From Clostridia bacterium (GTDB taxonomy: Bacteria > Bacillota > Clostridia > Christensenellales > Borkfalkiaceae), in assembly GCA_017625565.1 (NCBI GenBank), contig JAGAKN010000015.1:6005-70004 (forward strand): a stretch of 64,000 nucleotides of DNA. Reading direction: 5' to 3'. This document shows, piece after piece, positions 4,257 to 64,000 of the stretch. Both the position numbers and the translations under genes were made by a program. The first letter of the stretch is position 1; every line of letters begins with the position of its first letter. The notes below the pieces were generated by a model. The model was not told the origin of the DNA and searched no databases. It was given only the letters and a program-made list of their open reading frames with translations.

Positions 4257-7200
4257 ATGAAAAACAGTTCTAACAACCGCAAGAAACATCTTCTTGCCTT
4301 TTGCTTATCGGTTATGATGCTTTCGTCCACGGCGGCATTTGCTTCCTGTTCGAATTCGTCTACAACCGATTCCTCTTCTTCGTCGTCTTCTTCGTCGTCC
4401 ACGACGGAAGCAGTCAACGATACTTCGCTCGTCAAAAACGGCGGATTTGAAACCTTTGCGAAAAACGACGGTTTGAATGCAATCGGTACGTCCGTTTCCA
4501 ACTGGTCGCGCTCGGTGAACACCGTTGCTTCGGGTAGCGCGTTGACCTCTAAGGCGGCGAGCGGTATCATCGATACGGCTACGGACGAATGGAAGAAATT
4601 GACGGGTACGTCGCTTACCGACGCAGAAGATATTACCGTGTTCACGGAAGAAGACGCAAAAGCAAAATGGGATACGCTCACCACGCGGGACAAGCTCGCG
4701 TATTACGACGTTTGGGAAAAGGCTAACCCCGACGGAAAGATTAAGAAAGATCTTTCTTTCTATCAAGCGTTCAATATTGACAGCGGTGACATCCCCACTC
4801 CTTCCTGCGACAATCCCGGCACGCACGACAACAGCACGGAAAATACCAAGATCTTAATGATCCATAACGAGTATCCCGAAAACACGTCGACGTCCACCTA
4901 TCAAAGCATGGGTACGGCGCAAAAATATACCGCGTCTTCGTCGGTCGTTTTAAAAGCAGGTACTTCGGCGGAATTCTCCGTTTGGGTTAAGACGTCCGAC
5001 CTTATGTCTACGTCTACCGACGGTACTCCCCAAGAAGCTGTGAAAAAAGGTGCATATATCAGCATTACGCACTCCGTCGGCGGAAGACAGTTGGATTCTT
5101 ACGAAGTGAAAAATATCAATACCGAAACGATGGACGAAAGCGCCCTTTCTAACGGTTGGATGAAATACTCCTTCTATTTGAAGGGTTCTTCCTATACGGA
5201 AACGACGTTCTCGATCGTGTTGGGTCTTGGTCAAGGCGGCGGGACGGATCGCTTGGAATACGTCAACGGGTATGCGTTCTTCGACGATATTCAATGCAAC
5301 TTGATCACTAATGACGATTTCGACGATAAGATGGACGAGCTGAATCTCGCAGAAGCGTATAAAGCGGACTTCAATTCCAAAAAATCGCAAAAGACGATCG
5401 ACGTTTCCACCCCCGCACACAAGGCGAGCAACGCATACGCAATGAATTTCTTCGGCGAATTCCGTTCGTCGAACGTACTCAAACAAGGCTTTGCATATAA
5501 AGCGACTTCGGGCAAAGTCGGTGGCGTAGATTACACGTCTATGGCAGGCAACTCCACCGCGCCTTGGCTCGGCGAAGGTTTCGACGGCACGTACGATCAA
5601 CAAGGCGTCTTCCAATACGTTGTCAATGCAAACAAAGCCGATTACGCGAAAGATTTAGCGACGGAAGCGCAAGGGAACGAGTATCTCAACGCTGTTTACG
5701 AAGATTATTTCAAAGACAACGATTTTGCAAAAGACAAACCCGTATTGTTGCTCTTGAGTGCGGACGGGGTTGCTTACACCGCAGAATCCAAGTATCAATT
5801 CGAATTTAAAGACACGAACGGCAATCCCGTAGATTATATGGCGATTTCTTTCTTCGTAAAGACGTCGGATTTGAACGGGCTTACGGGCGCAGGCATCAAG
5901 ATCGTAGACAAAAACAACGAAACGCAGTCTTTCGAGTCCATCGACACGACGGATATCACCACCGTTGACGTCGGCGAAAGCAAAGACATTTACAACGGCT
6001 GGCAACAATGTTTCTTCTTTATCGAAAACGAATCGGAAGATCCTGATGCAAAATTCACGTTGTCTTTCACGTTCGGCCCTACGTCGATTACCAAAGACAC
6101 GACTATCTCCAGCTTCCATCCCGGTTTCGCGGCATTTACCGAATTCCAAACGTACGCAATGACGCAAAAGGAATTTGAAAGCGCGCAAAGCAATACCTAC
6201 GCTTTGATCGCGTCCGTCAAGGGCGATAACGTAGAAGAAGAAACGGGCAACGCAGGTTTTGATACGGCGTCTTCGGTTGCGTATACTTCCATCGAAGAAG
6301 GCATCACGACCTTGAAAAACTACAAAGGCGTTTACAGCAATAGCGACTACGTTGCAATCGGCGATGGCACGAACACGAAAATCAACCAACACAAAAACGC
6401 TGGTTTGATCAATAAAGAACATTTCTTAGAATACTACGATACGTTAGTGGCTGGCGCGGACGCTCCCGCTTGGATCAAAGGCTTGCAATCGCATGCAACG
6501 CTTACAACGAACGCGGAAAGCGTTTGGAACGAAGTAATCGGCGACGACGTCACCCAACCCTTGTTGATTTGGAACGACGGCGCAAGCAATAAAGCTTACG
6601 GCTATATCGGTACGACGACGACCATCGCGGCAAATTCCTATTCGGCAATTTCCACGCGCGTTAAAGTAAGCGCAGGCGCGAAAGCGTACGTTTACTTGAT
6701 GGATATGGACGACGATATGCACCAAGACAAGCTTTCCATCGGTTCTACCTTGATTTATTGGTATGACGACGACGGCAACCTTTGCGCATCCGATCCCCAA
6801 GCAAGCGGTTTCAACAAGAGAACGGACGTTGCGTTCAAGATGCAATCCAACGGCTTGTACCTCGTAAATAAGAACTGGAAAGGCGCAAGCTCCGAACGCA
6901 TTTCGCAAACGGCGTACTATGCAAACCTTGATGCGTACACCGAAACGGACGACGACGGCAACAAGCTCGTCGGTAAAGGCGGAGTTGCGTACGCGTACAC
7001 CGACGCTTGGAACGGCGAAGGTCAAGACGGCATCGCGTTCTACTACGACAAGGAAACGGACACCTATTTCGCAGACAAAGCAAAGACGATCCCCGTAAAG
7101 AATTTGACGGAAATCACAAAAATCAGCGAAACGGATACCGTGAACCCCTTGCCCTACCGCTACCTTGCGCAAGAAAAGCAAGAGCTTTACTTCGAAATCG

Positions 7201-7817
7201 AGAACACCAAAGGCGAATGGGCTACCGTCACCTTCTACGTGCATACAGGCTCGAACGCAAAGAACTACCGTTTGGAAGTTTGGAGCGGTGAAAGAAATGG
7301 CGCTGCAAACCCCTTAGACACGTACGTTATGTTCGATACGAACAACCCTGGCGACGCGCAAAATAACTTCTCGGGGCTTATCGAAGAATATAAGGACAAA
7401 GCGGAAACGACGTATTTCGAAAGCGTGTTCTCGTTCTATGACACCGATAAATATCTTCGTTATAACGCGGATTTCGATAAGGCAAACAACCAAATCGGCA
7501 ACGATTACGAAAAGAGTTTCTTCGCTTCCGAACAAACGGCAGGCGTTGCATATCTCAACTATCAAAAAGCAGGTAGCGTGTACACCGCGTTTGCGGACTA
7601 CTCCTACTCCGAACAATTGGTGACGCCGACGGCAAGTGACGATTCCACGACGGAAGAAGACACGACGGAAGAAGATAGCACCGGCACGAACGTGTGGTTG
7701 TTGGCAAGCTCGATCTCAATCGCTGCGGTATTGCTCCTTGCAATCGTCAGCTTGATCGTGAAGAAGGTTGTAGCAAAGATCCGCAAAAAGCGTGGCTATA
7801 AATCTAAAAAGAACTAA
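4257..7817 (+). CDS. Large (1186 aa) cell-surface protein: lipoprotein-type signal peptide, poly-Ser linker, about 4 CBM/galactose-binding-like beta-sandwich modules, acidic Thr/Glu/Asp linker, C-terminal TM helix and basic tail
   Basis: N-terminus MKNSSNNRKKHLLAFCLSVMMLSSTAAFASC followed by S10. NGGFE module start. Recurring FSVWVKTSDL / ISFFVKTSDL / VKVSAGAKAYVYL / TFYVHTGSNAKNYRLEVWSG strands. C-terminus WLLASSISIAAVLLLAIVSLIVKKVVAKIRKKRGYKSKKN, with no LPXTG. Confidence 0.8.
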   Translation: MKNSSNNRKKHLLAFCLSVMMLSSTAAFASCSNSSTTDSSSSSSSSSSTTEAVNDTSLVKNGGFETFAKNDGLNAIGTSVSNWSRSVNTVASGSALTSKAASGIIDTATDEWKKLTGTSLTDAEDITVFTEEDAKAKWDTLTTRDKLAYYDVWEKANPDGKIKKDLSFYQAFNIDSGDIPTPSCDNPGTHDNSTENTKILMIHNEYPENTSTSTYQSMGTAQKYTASSSVVLKAGTSAEFSVWVKTSDLMSTSTDGTPQEAVKKGAYISITHSVGGRQLDSYEVKNINTETMDESALSNGWMKYSFYLKGSSYTETTFSIVLGLGQGGGTDRLEYVNGYAFFDDIQCNLITNDDFDDKMDELNLAEAYKADFNSKKSQKTIDVSTPAHKASNAYAMNFFGEFRSSNVLKQGFAYKATSGKVGGVDYTSMAGNSTAPWLGEGFDGTYDQQGVFQYVVNANKADYAKDLATEAQGNEYLNAVYEDYFKDNDFAKDKPVLLLLSADGVAYTAESKYQFEFKDTNGNPVDYMAISFFVKTSDLNGLTGAGIKIVDKNNETQSFESIDTTDITTVDVGESKDIYNGWQQCFFFIENESEDPDAKFTLSFTFGPTSITKDTTISSFHPGFAAFTEFQTYAMTQKEFESAQSNTYALIASVKGDNVEEETGNAGFDTASSVAYTSIEEGITTLKNYKGVYSNSDYVAIGDGTNTKINQHKNAGLINKEHFLEYYDTLVAGADAPAWIKGLQSHATLTTNAESVWNEVIGDDVTQPLLIWNDGASNKAYGYIGTTTTIAANSYSAISTRVKVSAGAKAYVYLMDMDDDMHQDKLSIGSTLIYWYDDDGNLCASDPQASGFNKRTDVAFKMQSNGLYLVNKNWKGASSERISQTAYYANLDAYTETDDDGNKLVGKGGVAYAYTDAWNGEGQDGIAFYYDKETDTYFADKAKTIPVKNLTEITKISETDTVNPLPYRYLAQEKQELYFEIENTKGEWATVTFYVHTGSNAKNYRLEVWSGERNGAANPLDTYVMFDTNNPGDAQNNFSGLIEEYKDKAETTYFESVFSFYDTDKYLRYNADFDKANNQIGNDYEKSFFASEQTAGVAYLNYQKAGSVYTAFADYSYSEQLVTPTASDDSTTEEDTTEEDSTGTNVWLLASSISIAAVLLLAIVSLIVKKVVAKIRKKRGYKSKKN

Positions 7818-7833
7818 TTTCTAATAAGCAAAA

Positions 7834-7866
7834 AGGTTGCAAGACAAACTTGCAACCTTTTTTTAT
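7834..7866. terminator. Bidirectional rho-independent terminator between convergent genes
   Basis: Perfect 10-bp stem AGGTTGCAAG / CTTGCAACCT with a 5-nt loop. Flanked by an A-run upstream and a T-run downstream. Confidence 0.85.
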
Positions 7867-7877
7867 TTTTCGTGTTT

Positions 7878-9182
7878 TTAATGCCTTAGCGCTTTCGGGA
7901 AATGGTTCTTCACCGTGCCGTTGACCGCTTTCCCAAGCCCCAACGGATACCCGTCTACGCAAACCAAACACCAACCGTTGGGGATCTCCACCGCGATCGT
8001 TTCACCGCGTAAATATCCTCTTACTCTAGCGTCCGTTTCCGACAACGACACAACGTTTTTACAATCTTCTCCGCGTGTAGCCATCGCCAACGAATGGGAC
8101 GGCTCGAACCGACCGTTTCTGACGTCGCCAAGCCGTACGCCGACGCGCAAAACTTGTAAACCTTTCCACTCGAAGACTCCGTCGGGGAGTTCGTATAACG
8201 TTCCATCCGTTTCATAAATGCGCTTTGCAAACGGACTTTTGAAAAATTGCTTTTCAAATTCCCGATACGCCTTTTCACTATCCCTACGCACGTTGGGCAT
8301 AGCCGTTTTGATGCGCGAAATTTCCCTTTCCGCCGTCGACGATTTTTCAAAAACCGCAACGAAATGCCCTTCCCCTTTGCAGGTATGCGGTAAGAGTTTT
8401 TCCGACGTAATCAACCGCATTTCGGGGTGCGTATTTAAAAAATTCTCCACCTGCCACTCGTCTTCTTCCAGCGAAAACGTGCAAGTCGAATACGCCAACC
8501 TTCCACCGCTTTTTAACATTTTCACGCTTTCGTTTAAGATCCGTGCTTGCCGAAGGGCGCATGCTTCGACGTTTTCTTCACTCCATTCCCTTAAAGCTTC
8601 TTCCGCGTTTTTTCGAAACATTCCTTCCCCGGAACAGGGCGCGTCCACGAGAATTTTATCGAAATACCCGCCAAACCGCTTGGAAAGATTTTCAGGCAGT
8701 TCGCAAACCACAACGGCGTTTTTTATCCCCATTCGCTCGACGTTTTGCGAAAGAATTTTCGCTCTTGAAAAAATAGGCTCGTTTAAAACCAACACTCCAT
8801 CACCCTGCATCGCGCAAGCGAGTTGCGTACCTTTTCCCCCAGGCGCGGAACAAAGATCAAGCACTCTTTCCCCCGGTTGCACGTCTAAAAGCGGAGCTAC
8901 TTTCATCGCGGACGGTTCTTGCGAATAAAACAACCCCGCGTCGTGCCACAAAGACAAACCGAGCTTTTCCCTGTCCGTATAAAACCCGTTTTCTTCCCAT
9001 TCTACGGGGTCGCCCAAAAAGGGGATTTTTGCTTTCAACGCATCCCTGCCCCCTTTCAAGACATTCAAACGCACCCCCTTGACGGGCTTTTTTTCATAGA
9101 CGGCAAAAAATGCTTCCCATTCGTTTTCGGGAAGCTGTTTTTGCATTCTTTGCATAAATTTTTCGGGTAATTGCATCTTCAT
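7878..9182 (-). CDS. rsmF: NOL1/NOP2/Sun-family rRNA (cytosine-C5) methyltransferase, RsmF-like with a PUA-like C-terminal domain
   Basis: 434 aa. SAM motif DLCSAPGGKG, catalytic DAPCSGEG and TCT motifs. Confidence 0.8.
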   Translation of the reverse strand: MKMQLPEKFMQRMQKQLPENEWEAFFAVYEKKPVKGVRLNVLKGGRDALKAKIPFLGDPVEWEENGFYTDREKLGLSLWHDAGLFYSQEPSAMKVAPLLDVQPGERVLDLCSAPGGKGTQLACAMQGDGVLVLNEPIFSRAKILSQNVERMGIKNAVVVCELPENLSKRFGGYFDKILVDAPCSGEGMFRKNAEEALREWSEENVEACALRQARILNESVKMLKSGGRLAYSTCTFSLEEDEWQVENFLNTHPEMRLITSEKLLPHTCKGEGHFVAVFEKSSTAEREISRIKTAMPNVRRDSEKAYREFEKQFFKSPFAKRIYETDGTLYELPDGVFEWKGLQVLRVGVRLGDVRNGRFEPSHSLAMATRGEDCKNVVSLSETDARVRGYLRGETIAVEIPNGWCLVCVDGYPLGLGKAVNGTVKNHFPKALRH

Positions 9183-16933: not shown

Positions 16934-18964
<2,031 letters not shown>

Positions 18965-33512: not shown

Positions 33513-34532
33513 TTAGTATAGCACACCCTGTGTTTTTTTCAAAGCGTTTTTATCCGTTTTTTTCGCTTTTTCCGTCTTAAAATCGCTTTTCCGACACAAA
33601 TCTCCCAACCCTTCGTAAGGAGTTTGCGCGAATTCGAACAGTTCCGCAAGCTCGTTTTGTGAAAGATCGAACAAGTGCCGTTCCGCACCGTCGTATACCT
33701 CCAAAACAAGATACGTGCCTCTCGCTACAAACCGCAACGCGTCCTTTATAGAGCAACTCTCCAGCACGGCTACACGACGGATTTCTACACCCTTTCTAAA
33801 CGCCGACAAAGCGGACACGTCCAGCTTTTCGTACGTCGCCGATTTGTCCTTGTTCCCAAATCCGCCCACGAACAACAATCCCCCGAACGTCAATAGCGTG
33901 AAATTCCACACCCTTTCCCGCGCGAGCGCGAAAAACGCCGAAAAAAAGAACGCTGAAAATAAAATCGTCAATACTCGACAAATACGTTCGGCTTTTCTCT
34001 CCGCAAGCGCTTGCCTGGGTTGTTTTTTGGAGAATACTCTTGCGAGCGCGCATTTTAACACTCTTCCGCCGTCCAAAGGGTATGCAGGCAAAATATTCAC
34101 AAGCGCTACGGACAGCGACGCATAACAAGCCGTATCCGTGTACGCGTAGAGCGTCGGATAAAACCACCAAAGCGCCACGAAAAACCCTGCCGTCGCCAAA
34201 TTGCAAAGCGGCCCGCAAACCGCCACGAAAATCTCGTCCTTGAACGACAACCCGCGCATATCCCCGTCGATTACCGCCCCGAACGGCATCAGTACGATTT
34301 TGTTGAGTTTATACCCTAGTTTCGCCGCCGCAAACGCGTGGGCGCATTCGTGTTGCGTTGCGACAAGCGCACTCATTAGAAATAGCAACAAATCCCCCGT
34401 GAACGCGTACCAAATCCCCGTCAGGATAAAAAGGGGATGAAATTGTATCACGTGAAACAACTTTTTTATTTTGCTATGAGAAAGGCGACGTTCTTGCGAG
34501 CGTCGCCTTGTACGTTCTGCACGCAAAGACAA
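33513..34532 (-). CDS. spoIVFB: M50 site-2 protease, SpoIVFB-like, with a C-terminal CBS-like domain
   Basis: HECAH zinc motif, NILPAYPLDGG motif, multiple TM segments. The start codon is uncertain. Confidence 0.75.
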   Translation of the reverse strand: MSLRAERTRRRSQERRLSHSKIKKLFHVIQFHPLFILTGIWYAFTGDLLLFLMSALVATQHECAHAFAAAKLGYKLNKIVLMPFGAVIDGDMRGLSFKDEIFVAVCGPLCNLATAGFFVALWWFYPTLYAYTDTACYASLSVALVNILPAYPLDGGRVLKCALARVFSKKQPRQALAERKAERICRVLTILFSAFFFSAFFALARERVWNFTLLTFGGLLFVGGFGNKDKSATYEKLDVSALSAFRKGVEIRRVAVLESCSIKDALRFVARGTYLVLEVYDGAERHLFDLSQNELAELFEFAQTPYEGLGDLCRKSDFKTEKAKKTDKNALKKTQGVLY

Positions 34533-44143: not shown

Positions 44144-45154
44144 ATGGATGCAAAAATCACCAAACAACGGTTGAGCAGAATGCTTTCGTATGATTGGATT
44201 AAAATAATTATTTTTTGCGTGGTCGGCATCTTGATTTGGTCGCTCATTTTCACGATGACGGCGACGAAGATCACGACGTCGCAACAATTCGTCGTATACA
44301 ATTACGTAGGCAACCGCCCGTTTACGCACACCAAGTTCTACGAATCCTACACCGGAGCGGTAGAAAACGGGATTTTCTCCTATGAAGTGTTGAAAACGAG
44401 CGTTTTTGACATCGCGGGAACACCCAGCGAAGAACGGAGGTTGATGGAAGGGCATCTTGGCATAGACGAAGGCGACGTTATTTTCGTGGCGGACAGTTGG
44501 CACTTAGACTCGGCTTACGAAGACGAAGAAACGGGCGAAACTCGCTACCAATACACCTATTTACAACAATTCTTATACTCTTGGCGTTTTTACGTCTACG
44601 ATTTAAATCCGGAAAGCGAACACAGTTATTTCCGCCAAATGGAAACCTATCTCGACGGATACTACACCAACGGTTGGGAAGATGCCGAAAGTTTGGATGA
44701 AAGCGCCGTGGAACGGGATTTCCGCGCGCGCGCCAAAAAAGACAAGCGCTTTAAAAAATCTTCGCAAATCCGCCAAGGCCTTCAAGACGATATTACACGT
44801 ATCCAAAATTACCGCAACGCCTTGGAGGAATTCTACGGCTACGTAGAAGCAGGCGTGGTCACGTTCACTCGTACGAGTATGCTCGATCCGGAAGACGAAA
44901 CGCAAACGCTCTTCGACGGCGTATTTACGATCAATATTTGCCCTGACAAAGCGGTTTCGGGCGGACTTTCCGAAATCGTTTCCTATCCGATTAAAACGCT
45001 GGATGAAAACGGCAACGAACAAACCGTTCAAACGGCGGAAAATATGAACGTTGCATTCTTTTATATGGACTCCACCGCAAAGGGTTTCGAGTTTGAGAGC
45101 GTTCCCTATATCACCTATATCATTCGGAACGCCATCGCCGCAACGGAGCATTGA
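44144..45154 (+). CDS. Hypothetical membrane-anchored protein (336 aa)
   Basis: TAGGAG RBS, one N-terminal TM helix (IIIFCVVGILIWSLIF), acidic and Tyr-rich extracytoplasmic part. No recognised family. Confidence 0.6.
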   Translation: MDAKITKQRLSRMLSYDWIKIIIFCVVGILIWSLIFTMTATKITTSQQFVVYNYVGNRPFTHTKFYESYTGAVENGIFSYEVLKTSVFDIAGTPSEERRLMEGHLGIDEGDVIFVADSWHLDSAYEDEETGETRYQYTYLQQFLYSWRFYVYDLNPESEHSYFRQMETYLDGYYTNGWEDAESLDESAVERDFRARAKKDKRFKKSSQIRQGLQDDITRIQNYRNALEEFYGYVEAGVVTFTRTSMLDPEDETQTLFDGVFTINICPDKAVSGGLSEIVSYPIKTLDENGNEQTVQTAENMNVAFFYMDSTAKGFEFESVPYITYIIRNAIAATEH

Positions 45155-55191: not shown

Positions 55192-55200
55192 TCCCCGTTA

Positions 55201-55480
55201 CTTAAATATATTTATATAAATAAAAATAGTAGTATTAGTAGTAGTGTGGGTGGAAAAGTGGACAACCCTTAAAAATAAAAAATAAAGCCCTTTTAATTAA
55301 AGAAATTTTTAGAAAAAATCGTTGTGTAGAACTTCCCTTTTTTTAGTGGATATTATTGTGAATAGTTTGTGGAATTGTGTATAGTAAAAAATTTAAAATT
55401 TTATATTTATAAAAAAGTAAATAATAAAAATACAAAATGAAAACAGTCCACAAACGTTGTTAACATTGTGGATAAACGTG
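55201..55480. other. oriC-like region: AT-rich tract, DnaA-trio run, GC cluster, DnaA boxes, a second 60-bp AT tract
   Basis: - 55201-55226 is 25/26 A/T.
- 55227-55244 reads TAG TAG TAT TAG TAG TAG.
- 55245-55253 is TGTGGGTGG.
- Degenerate boxes lie at 55257, 55323, 55345, 55357, 55368 and 55377.
- 55381-55440 is 56/60 A/T.
- A perfect TGTGGATAA lies at 55467-55475. Confidence 0.75.
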
Positions 55481-55534: not shown

Positions 55535-56206
55535 ATGATTAAAGAACAATTAATTAAAGAAAAAAAAGAATATTTCGATGCGTTTAGGGCGTTGATTTTA
55601 GAATATAATAAGCGGTTTAATTTAACGACGATTTTGGATGAAAAAGATATGTATTATAAGCATTTTCTCGATAGCGTTGCCGGGATAGAGTGCTTTGAAA
55701 AAAATACGAAAGTTGCAGAAGTAGGTTCAGGCGCAGGGTTTCCTTCCATCGCATTAAAAATTGTTGAACCGAGTTTAGAATTTTCCCTTTTTGAAAGTGT
55801 AGGAAAAAAATGCGAATTTTTGCACGTTGTTGTGGATAAACTTGGATTAAAAGGAATGTATATTTATAACATGCGTGCAGAAGACGCATTAAAGGAAAAC
55901 ATACATAGAGAACAGTACGATTACGTGACAGCGCGGGCAGTTGCTCGTATGAATACGTTGACGGAATACTGTTTGCCTTTTGTAAAGGTGGGCGGAAGGT
56001 TTATTGCATATAAAAGCGGTGAAAAAGAAGAGATTGACGAAGCAAAAACCGCCTATAAAACGTTGGGCGGAACGTTGGAAAAAATTTACGAGTACGAATT
56101 GCCTGAAAATTACGGAAAAAGGATTATTGCCGTTGTAAAAAAGGTAAAAAATACGCCTTTGCAATATCCGCGCGGACAAGGAAAAGAGCGAAAACAACCA
56201 CTTTGA
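55535..56206 (+). CDS. rsmG: 16S rRNA (guanine527-N7) methyltransferase RsmG (GidB)
   Basis: 223 aa. SAM motif VGSGAGFP and family-typical length. Contains an internal perfect DnaA box at 55831-55839. Confidence 0.9.
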   Translation: MIKEQLIKEKKEYFDAFRALILEYNKRFNLTTILDEKDMYYKHFLDSVAGIECFEKNTKVAEVGSGAGFPSIALKIVEPSLEFSLFESVGKKCEFLHVVVDKLGLKGMYIYNMRAEDALKENIHREQYDYVTARAVARMNTLTEYCLPFVKVGGRFIAYKSGEKEEIDEAKTAYKTLGGTLEKIYEYELPENYGKRIIAVVKKVKNTPLQYPRGQGKERKQPL

Positions 56207-62462: not shown

Positions 62463-63185
62463 ATGACGAACGGCATTTTGCAAAATTTATGCGCAATTCA
62501 ATGGTCGCGATACGTCTTTGACGTCATCGTGGTGCTTTGTTTGCTAGGATTTATGATTGTTTCCGCGCGTAAAGGTTTTGTGGAATGTTTTTTCGGGTTT
62601 GCGTCTACGCTTATCGCGCTATTCGTCGCCGTTGCCTTTGCGAAAGCGTTTTTAAATATGACGGGCGGATTGTTCGGTTTGCAGAAATTTTTTGACGGAA
62701 AGTTTACCAAATTCTTCTCCAAGATTTCCGGGTTTGACGTGGATATTTCCCAAGTAGGCTTAGAAACGGCGTTAGAGAGCCAAGACGTATCCGCGTTGCT
62801 AGGAAAACTTGCGCTGAAAACCTTCGGGAAAGGGGAGCTTGCGCCGGGCACGACGCTTGGAATGGTGCTCGGTACGACGGTTGCTAAATTGACGGCAACG
62901 CTTGTTTCGGCGATCCTGCTTTTTATTGTAGCAAAACTCTTGCTCGGCTTGGCGAAAGCCGTGCTCCGCGCGGTGGTTATGCGTTTGCGATTATTGGACG
63001 CGGTAGACACCTTACTCGGTGCGGTGGTTGGGATTGCGGAATGTTTACTGCTCGTTTGTTTCGTAATGTCGGTGCTTACGATCATTCCGTCGCAAACCGT
63101 CGTAGCGTATTTGGAAAACGGCTTGCTAGTCGGTTGGCTTTACCGCAATAATTTAATCGTATATTTGCTCGGATTATTGTTGTAA
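62463..63185 (+). CDS. cvpA: CvpA-family (colicin V production) membrane protein
   Basis: Start at the ATG 62463 (AAAGGAG RBS). N-terminus DVIVVLCLLGFMIVSARKGF typical of CvpA, 4-5 TM segments. Confidence 0.8.
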   Translation: MTNGILQNLCAIQWSRYVFDVIVVLCLLGFMIVSARKGFVECFFGFASTLIALFVAVAFAKAFLNMTGGLFGLQKFFDGKFTKFFSKISGFDVDISQVGLETALESQDVSALLGKLALKTFGKGELAPGTTLGMVLGTTVAKLTATLVSAILLFIVAKLLLGLAKAVLRAVVMRLRLLDAVDTLLGAVVGIAECLLLVCFVMSVLTIIPSQTVVAYLENGLLVGWLYRNNLIVYLLGLLL

Positions 63186-63194
63186 ACCTTTCTA

Positions 63195-63666
63195 CTATCC
63201 ACAGAAAAAAACGTTATCCACAATGAAAAAAGAAGAAAAAAGTTCCCCCGAAAACGGCTTGTAGGATCTTGTCGCGCGGGGGATTTTTTTGTCGAAAAAT
63301 AAAATTATAAATCGTATGCAAAAGCAAAAAAAGTCGGTTATCCACAAAAATGTGGAGAAAAAAAGGTTGTCCACCCAACAAATTTCAAAAATGTGGATAA
63401 TTAGCCCTGTCAATGTGCAAGCAGGGGCTGTTTTAAAACGGGTATTTTATTAAAACTCCTTGAAAACAAAGGGAAAGAGATGTGGATAACTACTCCACAA
63501 ACGCGCGCAAATAAAGAAAAGAAGATAAAAAAAACTTGTGGATAAAAAACAGGGAGAGAGAAAAAAGTGGATAAATTTGCAAAAACGTCGCAAAAAAAGT
63601 GAAAAAATATGCGCAATTATCCACAAACGTTTGTTCTTTTCCACAAGTCGAAAAAAGTTTTCCACA
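63195..63666. repeat. Dense DnaA-box cluster (13 boxes, 6 perfect)
   Basis: - Perfect TTATCCACA/TGTGGATAA at 63214, 63338, 63392, 63481, 63537 and 63617.
- One mismatch at 63195, 63351, 63566, 63637 and 63658.
- Two mismatches at 63367 and 63491. Confidence 0.9.
63244..63290 (+). terminator. Candidate terminator after cvpA
   Basis: 7-bp stem TCCCCCG / CGGGGGA with a 26-nt loop, followed by T7. Confidence 0.45.
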
Positions 63667-63732
63667 AATATGCATTGCAGTATATTTGCATACGGGGTAA
63701 AATTATGCAAAAAACAGGTGCTGGAATGGTCC

Positions 63733-64000
63733 TTATCGGACGCTTTCAAAACGCACGTTTACGTTGGCGATTGTGCGTGCGAGAATGGTGTCTTGATAGC
63801 TACGCAATCGACGGTTTTTATATTTGACTAACCGTTCCCGAATGCGGAACACGTCGCAACCGCAAGCGCGGGTTTTTTCGAAAACGTGATGGATTTCGCC
63901 CGAGAGTTTCTTTTCCGCGGAAGAAAAAAATTCCTTAGAAATGTTGCCCGCGTCCGAAAGCGAATCCAAGGATTGTGCCGTGGAATAGTCGAGAACCCCC
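63733..64000 (-). CDS. 3' end of an unidentified CDS that enters from beyond the window
   Basis: The frame is open from 64000 to the stop at 63733 (...FRIRERLVKYKNRRLRSYQDTILARTIANVNVRFESVR). I do not recognise a family, and it is not DnaA-like. Confidence 0.4.
   Translation of the reverse strand, partial: GVLDYSTAQSLDSLSDAGNISKEFFSSAEKKLSGEIHHVFEKTRACGCDVFRIRERLVKYKNRRLRSYQDTILARTIANVNVRFESVR

Follow-up and report, generated by a model that had tools for sequence, protein, structure and literature searches.

A conserved DnaA-box cluster 8 kb from a probable unwinding site in an uncultured Clostridia lineage

The feature under study is a 472-bp region (63195-63666) of a 64-kb stretch of DNA, here called the window, from an uncultured gut Clostridia genus. 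It is a dense cluster of DnaA boxes between the convergent genes cvpA and gerAC. About 8 kb away, a module at 55.2 kb with an array of DnaA-trios is the probable unwinding site of the replication origin (oriC). Judging from the alignment with related species, the boxes of the cluster and their spacing are under purifying selection. We hold with moderate confidence that the 470-bp spacer is a dedicated, selectively maintained platform, predicted to bind DnaA with high affinity, at which no strand opening would take place. By analogy, it would be an origin-proximal DnaA-box cluster (DBC) like those of Bacillus subtilis or like datA of Escherichia coli. This is the favoured reading, with an even chance of being right.

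Boxes of the cluster

Six boxes match TTATCCACA perfectly. They are located at 63214(+), 63338(+), 63392(-), 63481(-), 63537(-) and 63617(+). Five boxes have one mismatch (63195(+), 63351(-), 63566(-), 63637(+) and 63658(+)). Boxes with two mismatches are present at 63367 (+, TTGTCCACC), 63491 (+, TACTCCACA) and 63290 (TGTCGAAAA). An earlier inspection of the window, the sequence-only reading, had counted 13 boxes, namely six perfect ones, five with a single mismatch and two with two. The count was confirmed and is extended by the box at 63290, which had been missed. Together, 14 boxes with up to two mismatches in 472 bp compare with about 1.6 expected from the window rate (213 per 128,000 strand positions).

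The chance level for perfect boxes was determined with 100 dinucleotide-preserving shuffles of the window. The whole 64 kb contain 8 perfect boxes. The shuffles had a mean of 0.29, and none of the 100 reached 8. By our own Poisson arithmetic, 0.0031 perfect boxes are expected per 412 bp, and six are roughly a 1e-18 event. A DBC consists of several near-consensus boxes within a few hundred base pairs of intergenic DNA, physically apart from the unwinding module. The spacer provides 11 boxes with at most one mismatch, six of them perfect, at a distance of 7,954 bp from that module.

The cluster and its edges comprise the following features:

63195-63222, plus strand: two co-oriented boxes, CTATCCACA (63195) and TTATCCACA (63214), between the cvpA stop codon and the terminator
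63237-63290, plus strand: the intrinsic terminator for cvpA, made of a GC stem (CCCCCG...CGGGGG) with a T run after it (-22.2 kcal/mol, z -2.3, UUUUUUU)
63283-63312, plus strand: short AT-rich tract with TTTGTCGAAAA, then ATAAAATTATAAAT, similar to a Spo0A '0A box' (TGTCGAA) or a DnaA box with two mismatches
63303-63322, unstranded: left arm of the inverted repeat around the cluster core, 20 nt, 80% complementary to the right arm, TTATGCA-like
63338-63400, unstranded: dense block of four boxes, TTATCCACA(+)-AAAA-TGTGGAGAA(-), TTGTCCACC(+, 63367) and TGTGGATAA(-, 63392)
63481-63574, minus strand: boxes at 63481 (perfect), 63537 (perfect) and 63566 (one mismatch), with a plus-strand box of two mismatches at 63491; positions kept in relatives
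63617-63666, plus strand: a triplet of co-oriented boxes (TTATCCACA, TTTTCCACA, TTTTCCACA) whose start positions differ by 20 and 21 bp
63685-63704, unstranded: right arm of the bracketing repeat, shortly ahead of the stop codon of gerAC (63733-63735, minus strand)

The earlier description of the head-to-head pair TTATCCACA-AAAA-TGTGGAGAA (63338-63359) is exact. It is also exact for the three co-oriented boxes at 63617, 63637 and 63658 with their spacing of 20-21 bp. The arms of the bracketing repeat resemble weak DnaA boxes (TTATGCA).

Conservation in related species

Relatives were collected by a DnaN scan with one genome per GTDB species, which yielded 21 loci (L004-L024). All are metagenome-assembled genomes labelled Candidatus Scatosoma, Clostridia or Clostridiales, with DnaN identities of 54-86%; NCBI places Ca. 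Scatosoma in Clostridia incertae sedis. A GerAC scan of metagenomes added two species that share the gene order (L034 and L037). A scan of genome contigs with a CvpA query returned zero relatives. The cluster is present in 12 species: the species of the window, L004, L005, L006, L009, L014, L016, L017, L019, L024, L034 and L037. The spacers of 10 species were aligned (alignment A1).

Contigs from different assemblies also match the window itself (L001-L003). They have 0 mismatches across the cluster region, and one metagenome scaffold is identical to the window over 11.5 kb. A misassembly at this point had been considered before; it is excluded by the three independent identical contigs.

Every locus that covers the 3' end of gerAC beside cvpA or yyaC, in all 12 species, has 8-13 boxes with at most one mismatch, of which 3-7 are perfect. 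The layout is shared. One end has one or two boxes and the TGTCGAA/AT-rich motif, followed by the dense head-to-head block. The other end has a run of minus boxes and then two or three plus boxes about 20 or 41 bp apart. This order persists among genomes in which CvpA is 31-42% identical in most species and the flanking DNA about 70%. In A1, the columns of the boxes have a majority identity of 83%, compared with 58% elsewhere (Mann-Whitney p = 9e-23).

Conservation differs between the elements. The block at 63338-63400 is the best-conserved part of the spacer, with the consensus TTATCCACCGCAAATGTGGATAA-A.AGGGGTTGTCCACC. The first and third boxes of the triplet at 63617-63666 occur in all aligned species, the middle one in the window, L004, L014, L017, L024 and L034. 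The closest relative, L004, keeps only the second of the two boxes at 63195 and 63214. The tract at 63283-63312 is the sole 30-bp tract of the cluster with at least 90% AT, and the window has a single copy of the exact 11-mer of its motif. In 10 of the 12 species, the spacer contains TGTCGAA with an AT-rich tract after it. By eye, motifs related to the bracketing repeat (TTTAT-N5-TATGCA) are visible in A1 at both spacer edges in the relatives.

In two species the whole spacer is inverted relative to both neighbouring genes and to the trio module (L034:11390-12004 and L037:8359-8956). The internal order is intact, and the function of the cassette is therefore likely autonomous and independent of orientation. 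The bracketing inverted repeat (63303-63322/63685-63704) may have mediated the inversion. A phase-variable inverton was considered and rejected. L034 and L037 are distinct species, 79% identical to each other and about 71% to the others, and the three contigs of the window's own species share one orientation. This indicates a fixed inversion, with no evidence of switching.

The cluster travels with the gerAC end, as indicated by three divergent arrangements. In L016, a 522-aa protein with a lipoprotein-like N-terminus (16950-18518) is inserted between cvpA and the cluster, which still adjoins the gerAC stop codon. A cvpA match was not found in L006. The genes after cvpA in L013 are unrelated, and no cluster is present there. 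A linkage to gerAC as such was rejected: distant gerA operons on human gut contigs (51% GerAC identity) have no cluster downstream. An isolated perfect DnaA box is located inside gerAA, past the window end (L001:13997, about 66459 in window coordinates), and is also present in L002.

Two clusters are found per locus, the cvpA-gerAC cluster and the trio module, and no others in any locus. They are 7.7-13 kb apart in the seven species in which both were located, which places the cluster near the origin. In at least five species (L008, L013, L018, L020 and L022) the trio module is present and no second cluster lies within the 8-10 kb covered. An accessory element fits this distribution better than an obligatory half of the origin. 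Species without a nearby second cluster show no visibly higher box count at the trio module.

Unwinding module beside rsmG and dnaN

The basal unwinding system (BUS) of bacterial origins is defined by one or more DnaA boxes, a spacer of at most 16 bp and at least three trios, with a preference for 3'-GAT-5' (PMC8287927). In the cluster, TAG/GAT trios adjoin none of the boxes. Some boxes, for example the one at 63537, are next to A-run NAN triplets, which are not kept in relatives, and a trio array is absent from the cluster in every species compared. The least stable 40-bp duplex of the cluster has -43.3 kcal/mol, compared with -36.1 and -36.4 kcal/mol at 55.2-55.4 kb. Without a DnaA-trio array and with an AT tract of only 30 bp, the cluster is unlikely to be the unwinding site. 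The scans for trios, AT content and duplex stability thus agree with the earlier statement that the region has no trio run and no long AT tract.

Three or more TAG trios within 16 bp of a box are found at a single place of the window (55227-55265). It is part of a module in and next to the spacer between ypsA and rsmG:

55196-55266, plus strand: AT-rich tract (55196-55240), trios TAG TAG TAT TAG TAG TAG (55227-55244), a 4-nt spacer and tandem boxes GGTGGAAAA / AGTGGACAA (55249-55265), in the ypsA-rsmG spacer
55467-55475, minus strand: perfect DnaA box after a second AT-rich tract of 71 bp (55373-55443), in the ypsA-rsmG spacer
55831-55839, minus strand: perfect DnaA box within the coding sequence of rsmG (codons V-V-D-K)

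Five of the six trios are TAG (3'-GAT-5'), and ten NAN triplets follow each other. In the whole window, the 40-bp duplexes that begin at 55198 and 55392 are the two least stable ones. The cumulative GC skew has its minimum at about 40-51 kb and rises after it. GC content is lowest at 54-57 kb, and all genes between 51 and 61 kb are on the plus strand. The unique combination of trios and boxes, the least stable duplexes, the GC skew and the low GC content make the 55.2-kb module beside rsmG and dnaN the probable unwinding site of oriC. A separate 'region 1' had been named as the relevant partner of the cluster, and the module with its trios and AT tracts bears this out.

At least 12 related species have kept the module. 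It adjoins the 5' end of rsmG in every module-bearing species whose locus includes rsmG, and rsmG and ypsA are inverted or shuffled around it. Its boxes are weak in the species of the window: one is perfect and the rest have at least two mismatches. A perfect box inside rsmG was found in all 14 closer loci that hold this gene; the offset was calculated for just one of them, L005, and is the same (296 nt). By our own estimate, synonymous sites would produce this box by chance in about 1/32 of cases per species, which suggests selection at the DNA level.

The same evidence bears on the idea that the cluster is a second independent origin, or the true oriC. It has the highest density of perfect boxes in the window. 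Against this stand the missing trio array in all species and the lack of an AT tract of the grade of a DNA unwinding element (DUE), given the duplex energies above. The skew minimum also lies elsewhere, and an origin at 63.4 kb would place tig, clpPX, dnaN, rpmH and yidC head-on to replication. We consider such an origin extremely improbable. Origin predictors that rely on the densest box cluster or on dnaA would probably misplace oriC in these genomes.

Several other observations concern the surroundings of the module. TTGTCGAAAA-like strings occur just beyond its tandem boxes in some relatives, for example L006 and L023. In L005, a block of three genes inserted between rsmG and dnaN (5588-8364), immediately adjacent to the origin module, appears to be of a restriction-modification type with two methyltransferases and an endonuclease, by reading of the translations. 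A conserved protein of 406-432 aa is also encoded between rsmG and dnaN (L005:8482-9702 and L008:8575-9873). About 21 kb left of the module there is a single parS-like site, TGTATCACGTGAAACA, with one mismatch to the consensus (34444-34459). Two open reading frames of the window had no Pfam match, one of 1186 aa at 4257-7817(+) and one of 336 aa at 44144-45154(+). The 1186-aa frame was called as a gene in the independent assemblies L025 and L026.

Absence of dnaA from the origin region

In the usual description of Firmicute origins, the genes are ordered rnpA-rpmH-dnaA-dnaN and dnaA has a box cluster on either side. The gene order in the window is gap(-), fbpA-like(-), tig-clpP-clpX-ypsA-rsmG-dnaN-rpmH-rnpA-yidD-yidC-jag (all plus), queT(-), yyaC(-), cvpA(+), the cluster and gerAC(-). 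The order dnaN-(rpmH)-rnpA-yidD-yidC-jag is kept on the same strand in essentially all 21 related loci.

A dnaA gene was not found in this region. The DnaA motifs GxGKTHL and DH[TS]T[VI] are absent from the six-frame translation of the window and from L001-L024 and L029-L039. Among 20 large open reading frames, Pfam detected gyrA, gyrB, serS, a lysS-like gene, lon and others, and no DnaA. Gene calls with Pfam revealed none in the left extension of about 6 kb (L025), which encodes maf, mreB, ftsH and a parB-like gene. The 9.2 kb to the right, with the gerA operon, methyltransferases, MatE and a lyase, have none either. With these extensions, the search reached from about 61 kb left of the trio module to about 18 kb right of it. 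In the 21 related species, no dnaA turned up at a distance of up to 10 kb from dnaN, even where DnaN identity is as low as 54%. This absence across the relatives indicates that the un-Firmicute-like origin region is old. In this Clostridia lineage, dnaA appears to be unlinked from oriC, and the origin region is unusual. The usual Firmicute arrangement is taken apart here: dnaA is gone, the unwinding module stands nearly alone, and the strongest predicted DnaA-binding DNA lies 8 kb off.

The cluster is not a dnaA promoter, as already stated in the sequence-only reading: cvpA and gerAC both end there, and no dnaA was found nearby. That reading had also offered a relic of a relocated dnaA promoter. 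The spacer would then be a decaying remnant of the ancestral rpmH-dnaA intergenic region, with the old dnaA promoter or oriC1, and would have no present function. Such an origin would agree with the missing dnaA at its usual place by dnaN and rpmH, and with the heavy rearrangement of the region, in which gyrB and gyrA (14-19 kb, minus strand) are 37 kb away from the dnaN-rpmH-rnpA-yidD-yidC-jag genes and on the opposite strand. The loss of dnaA beside dnaN, seen even at 54% DnaN identity, is old enough for a relic to have decayed. Yet 12 species whose flanks share about 70% nucleotide identity retain perfect boxes with their order and spacing, and the sequence between the boxes is essentially randomised. 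Recent horizontal copies of one sequence are also disfavoured by the identity of about 58% outside the boxes. The contrast between box and other columns in A1 makes a relic very hard to defend.

Flanking genes and transcription signals

The cvpA gene (Pfam Colicin_V) ends at 63185 on the plus strand. The minus-strand gene that ends at 63733 and runs past the window edge is gerAC (Spore_GerAC). It was identified on the metagenome scaffold that equals the window over 11.5 kb, where it closes a gerAA-gerAB-gerAC germination operon. The cluster lies between convergent 3' ends, as first described, and the minus-strand neighbour that had been left without a name is now assigned.

DnaA is a transcription factor at several DBCs of B. 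subtilis, for example sda and ywlC (PMC3245932, PMC4447404). The cluster could therefore be a region controlled by DnaA or Spo0A for an unannotated transcript, such as a small RNA, an antisense RNA to gerAC or cvpA or an sda-like gene, or a DnaA roadblock that insulates the convergent units. This would suit the conserved TGTCGAA and AT-rich tract at one end of the cassette, as well as a weak promoter-like match at 63659-63686 that points into gerAC in antisense. In A1, a conserved sigma-70 promoter was not found in the cassette; the matches are weak (9/12), and the spacing of -35 and -10 elements is not conserved. A conserved open reading frame is likewise missing in the relatives, and Rfam had no match in 54-64 kb at gathering thresholds. 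The inversion of the cassette moreover swaps the gene that would be read in antisense. Convergent 3' ends and the lack of a conserved promoter, reading frame or Rfam family make a transcriptional operator unlikely, and we give this explanation little weight.

Two candidates were rejected. The peptide similarity that suggested an sda-like small conserved reading frame results from translated boxes in shifting frames only. A hairpin at 63405-63430, a possible structured terminator or small RNA, is neither significant (z = -0.19) nor conserved. Besides the cvpA terminator, the cluster has no significant conserved hairpin.

Proposed function of the cluster

The favoured reading is a reservoir of DnaA near the origin. 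DnaA would occupy the 11-13 strong boxes first and the weaker boxes next to the DnaA-trios later. The cluster may act as an origin-proximal sink or reservoir that shapes the timing of initiation. It would be replicated seconds after firing, and its capacity would double at once, which could help to delay re-initiation. The precedent is B. subtilis. It has six DBCs outside oriC, nearly all of them proximal to oriC, whose deletion causes early initiation; one oriC-proximal copy partly restores the timing in a dosage-dependent manner (PMC3245932).

Spo0A may also act at the cluster in a spore-former, in view of the conserved TGTCGAA. This heptamer is the consensus of the 0A box, and the Spo0A boxes in oriC of B. 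subtilis overlap DnaA boxes and aid copy-number control in sporulation (PMC5295017). Genes for germination and a spore protease are present and make a Spo0A input plausible; TGTCGAA is also a DnaA box with two mismatches.

Some points weigh against a DnaA reservoir. The organism is known from metagenomes only, DnaA binding is a prediction from the DNA, and dnaA was not located in the region searched. The effect of DBCs in B. subtilis is modest, and several deletions are needed to see it (PMC5295017). Such a modest effect, compared with the genus-wide fixed spacing of one cluster, may point to a more specific role. Due to the weak boxes at the trio module, the strong cluster could be needed in cis for DnaA loading.

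The latter would be the case if the cluster were one half of a split bipartite oriC, the distal and box-rich one that corresponds to oriC1 or incAB, with DnaA looping over 8-13 kb in a way that is required for unwinding or strongly stimulates it. We regard this as possible, with clearly less likelihood than a reservoir. Its second part, a dnaA gene between the halves that was replaced by about ten other genes, is tentative to the same degree. Two clusters are indeed present, one with DUE and trios (55.2-55.5 kb) and one without (63.2-63.7 kb). Firmicute origins normally consist of such a pair, a box-rich cluster without DUE and a cluster with DUE and trios. Both halves are needed for in vitro unwinding in Clostridioides difficile (PMC7561715). 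The 13 sites of the cluster are close to the 12 DnaA sites of B. subtilis oriC1 (PMC4447404). A 0A-box-like motif and a short AT tract are shared with B. subtilis oriC. A split origin would also account for the weak boxes of the trio module and the distance of 7.7-13 kb maintained in seven species, and the internal spacing, which is strongly conserved, points to an ordered oligomer of DnaA.

The geometry of the locus argues against this arrangement. The two halves of known bipartite origins flank dnaA at about 1.4 kb (1.3-1.5 kb), whereas here 8-13 kb with about ten genes and no dnaA lie between them. The distance varies by 5 kb, the orientation is flipped in two species, and at least five relatives with a trio module have no second cluster within 8-10 kb. 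Symmetric inversions around an origin also preserve proximity by default. Of the bipartite half proposed by the sequence-only reading, the two clusters, one with trios and DUE, stand; the flanking of dnaA does not. Sequence alone does not separate a bipartite half from titration. The other proposal, a cluster like datA or a DBC, receives more weight here due to the variable gap of 8-13 kb, the relatives without a second cluster, the inverted cassette and the B. subtilis precedents.

A further extension would be a 'dispersed' origin in Ca. Scatosoma and relatives, with the cassette as an obligatory loading platform in cis, long-range looping and possibly a gate by Spo0A in sporulation. This is unlikely, somewhat more so than a split origin as such. 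If true, the halves of a bipartite origin would act together across five to ten times the largest distance described so far. The lineage provides a natural experiment on the extra DnaA boxes of origins: are they for loading in cis, or do they only buffer the initiator? If the cluster is only a sink of the DBC type, it adds a well-supported but ordinary member to a known class.

Comparison with known systems

The cluster and the 55.2-kb module resemble the bipartite oriC of B. subtilis (incAB/incC), C. difficile and Helicobacter pylori in having two box clusters, of which only one has trios and a DUE. Read on the box strand, the trio array CTACTACTAATACTACTA differs little from CTACTACTATTACTACTA of C. 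difficile (PMC7561715). The differences concern the genes. Instead of dnaA, the clusters enclose rsmG, dnaN, rpmH, rnpA, yidD, yidC, jag, queT, yyaC and cvpA (8-13 kb). There is no dnaA in the neighbourhood, and several relatives have no second cluster nearby. In terms of the BUS, 55196-55266 fits fully with tandem boxes, a 4-nt spacer, six trios and an AT-rich flank; 63195-63666 does not.

datA of E. coli is also a cluster of high-affinity boxes off oriC. It has no DUE, is replicated early and is proposed to lower the available initiator, and the shared logic is general only. datA has five boxes and an essential site for integration host factor (IHF), and it stimulates the hydrolysis of DnaA-ATP. 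Neither IHF nor a datA-type mechanism is known in Firmicutes. Hundreds of kb separate datA from oriC, compared with 8 kb between the cluster and the origin module.

The closest likeness is to the DBCs of B. subtilis (gcp-ydiF, jag-trmE/thdF, yydA-yycS, ywcI-vpr, ywlC-ywlB and yqeG-sda). These are intergenic groups of about 4-12 boxes near the origin and apart from the unwinding site. In the catalogue of in vitro DnaA sites, one DBC with 10 sites is downstream of the convergent genes gcp and ydiF, and another is downstream of jag (PMC4447404). The former shares the position between convergent 3' ends; with regard to the latter, the cluster lies 2.3 kb past jag. The proposed role, titration of DnaA that restrains initiation, matches as well. 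In contrast to the DBCs, whose positions differ between Bacillus species, there is a single cluster of fixed layout throughout the genus. It is paired with an origin without dnaA, has more perfect boxes (six), a 0A-box-like motif and bracketing inverted repeats, and is known from its sequence only. The element itself is probably of a known kind, a box cluster outside the unwinding site, in an unusual genomic context. This context is the box-by-box conservation between unrelated convergent genes, 8-13 kb from the unwinding module, in a cassette that keeps its layout even when inverted.

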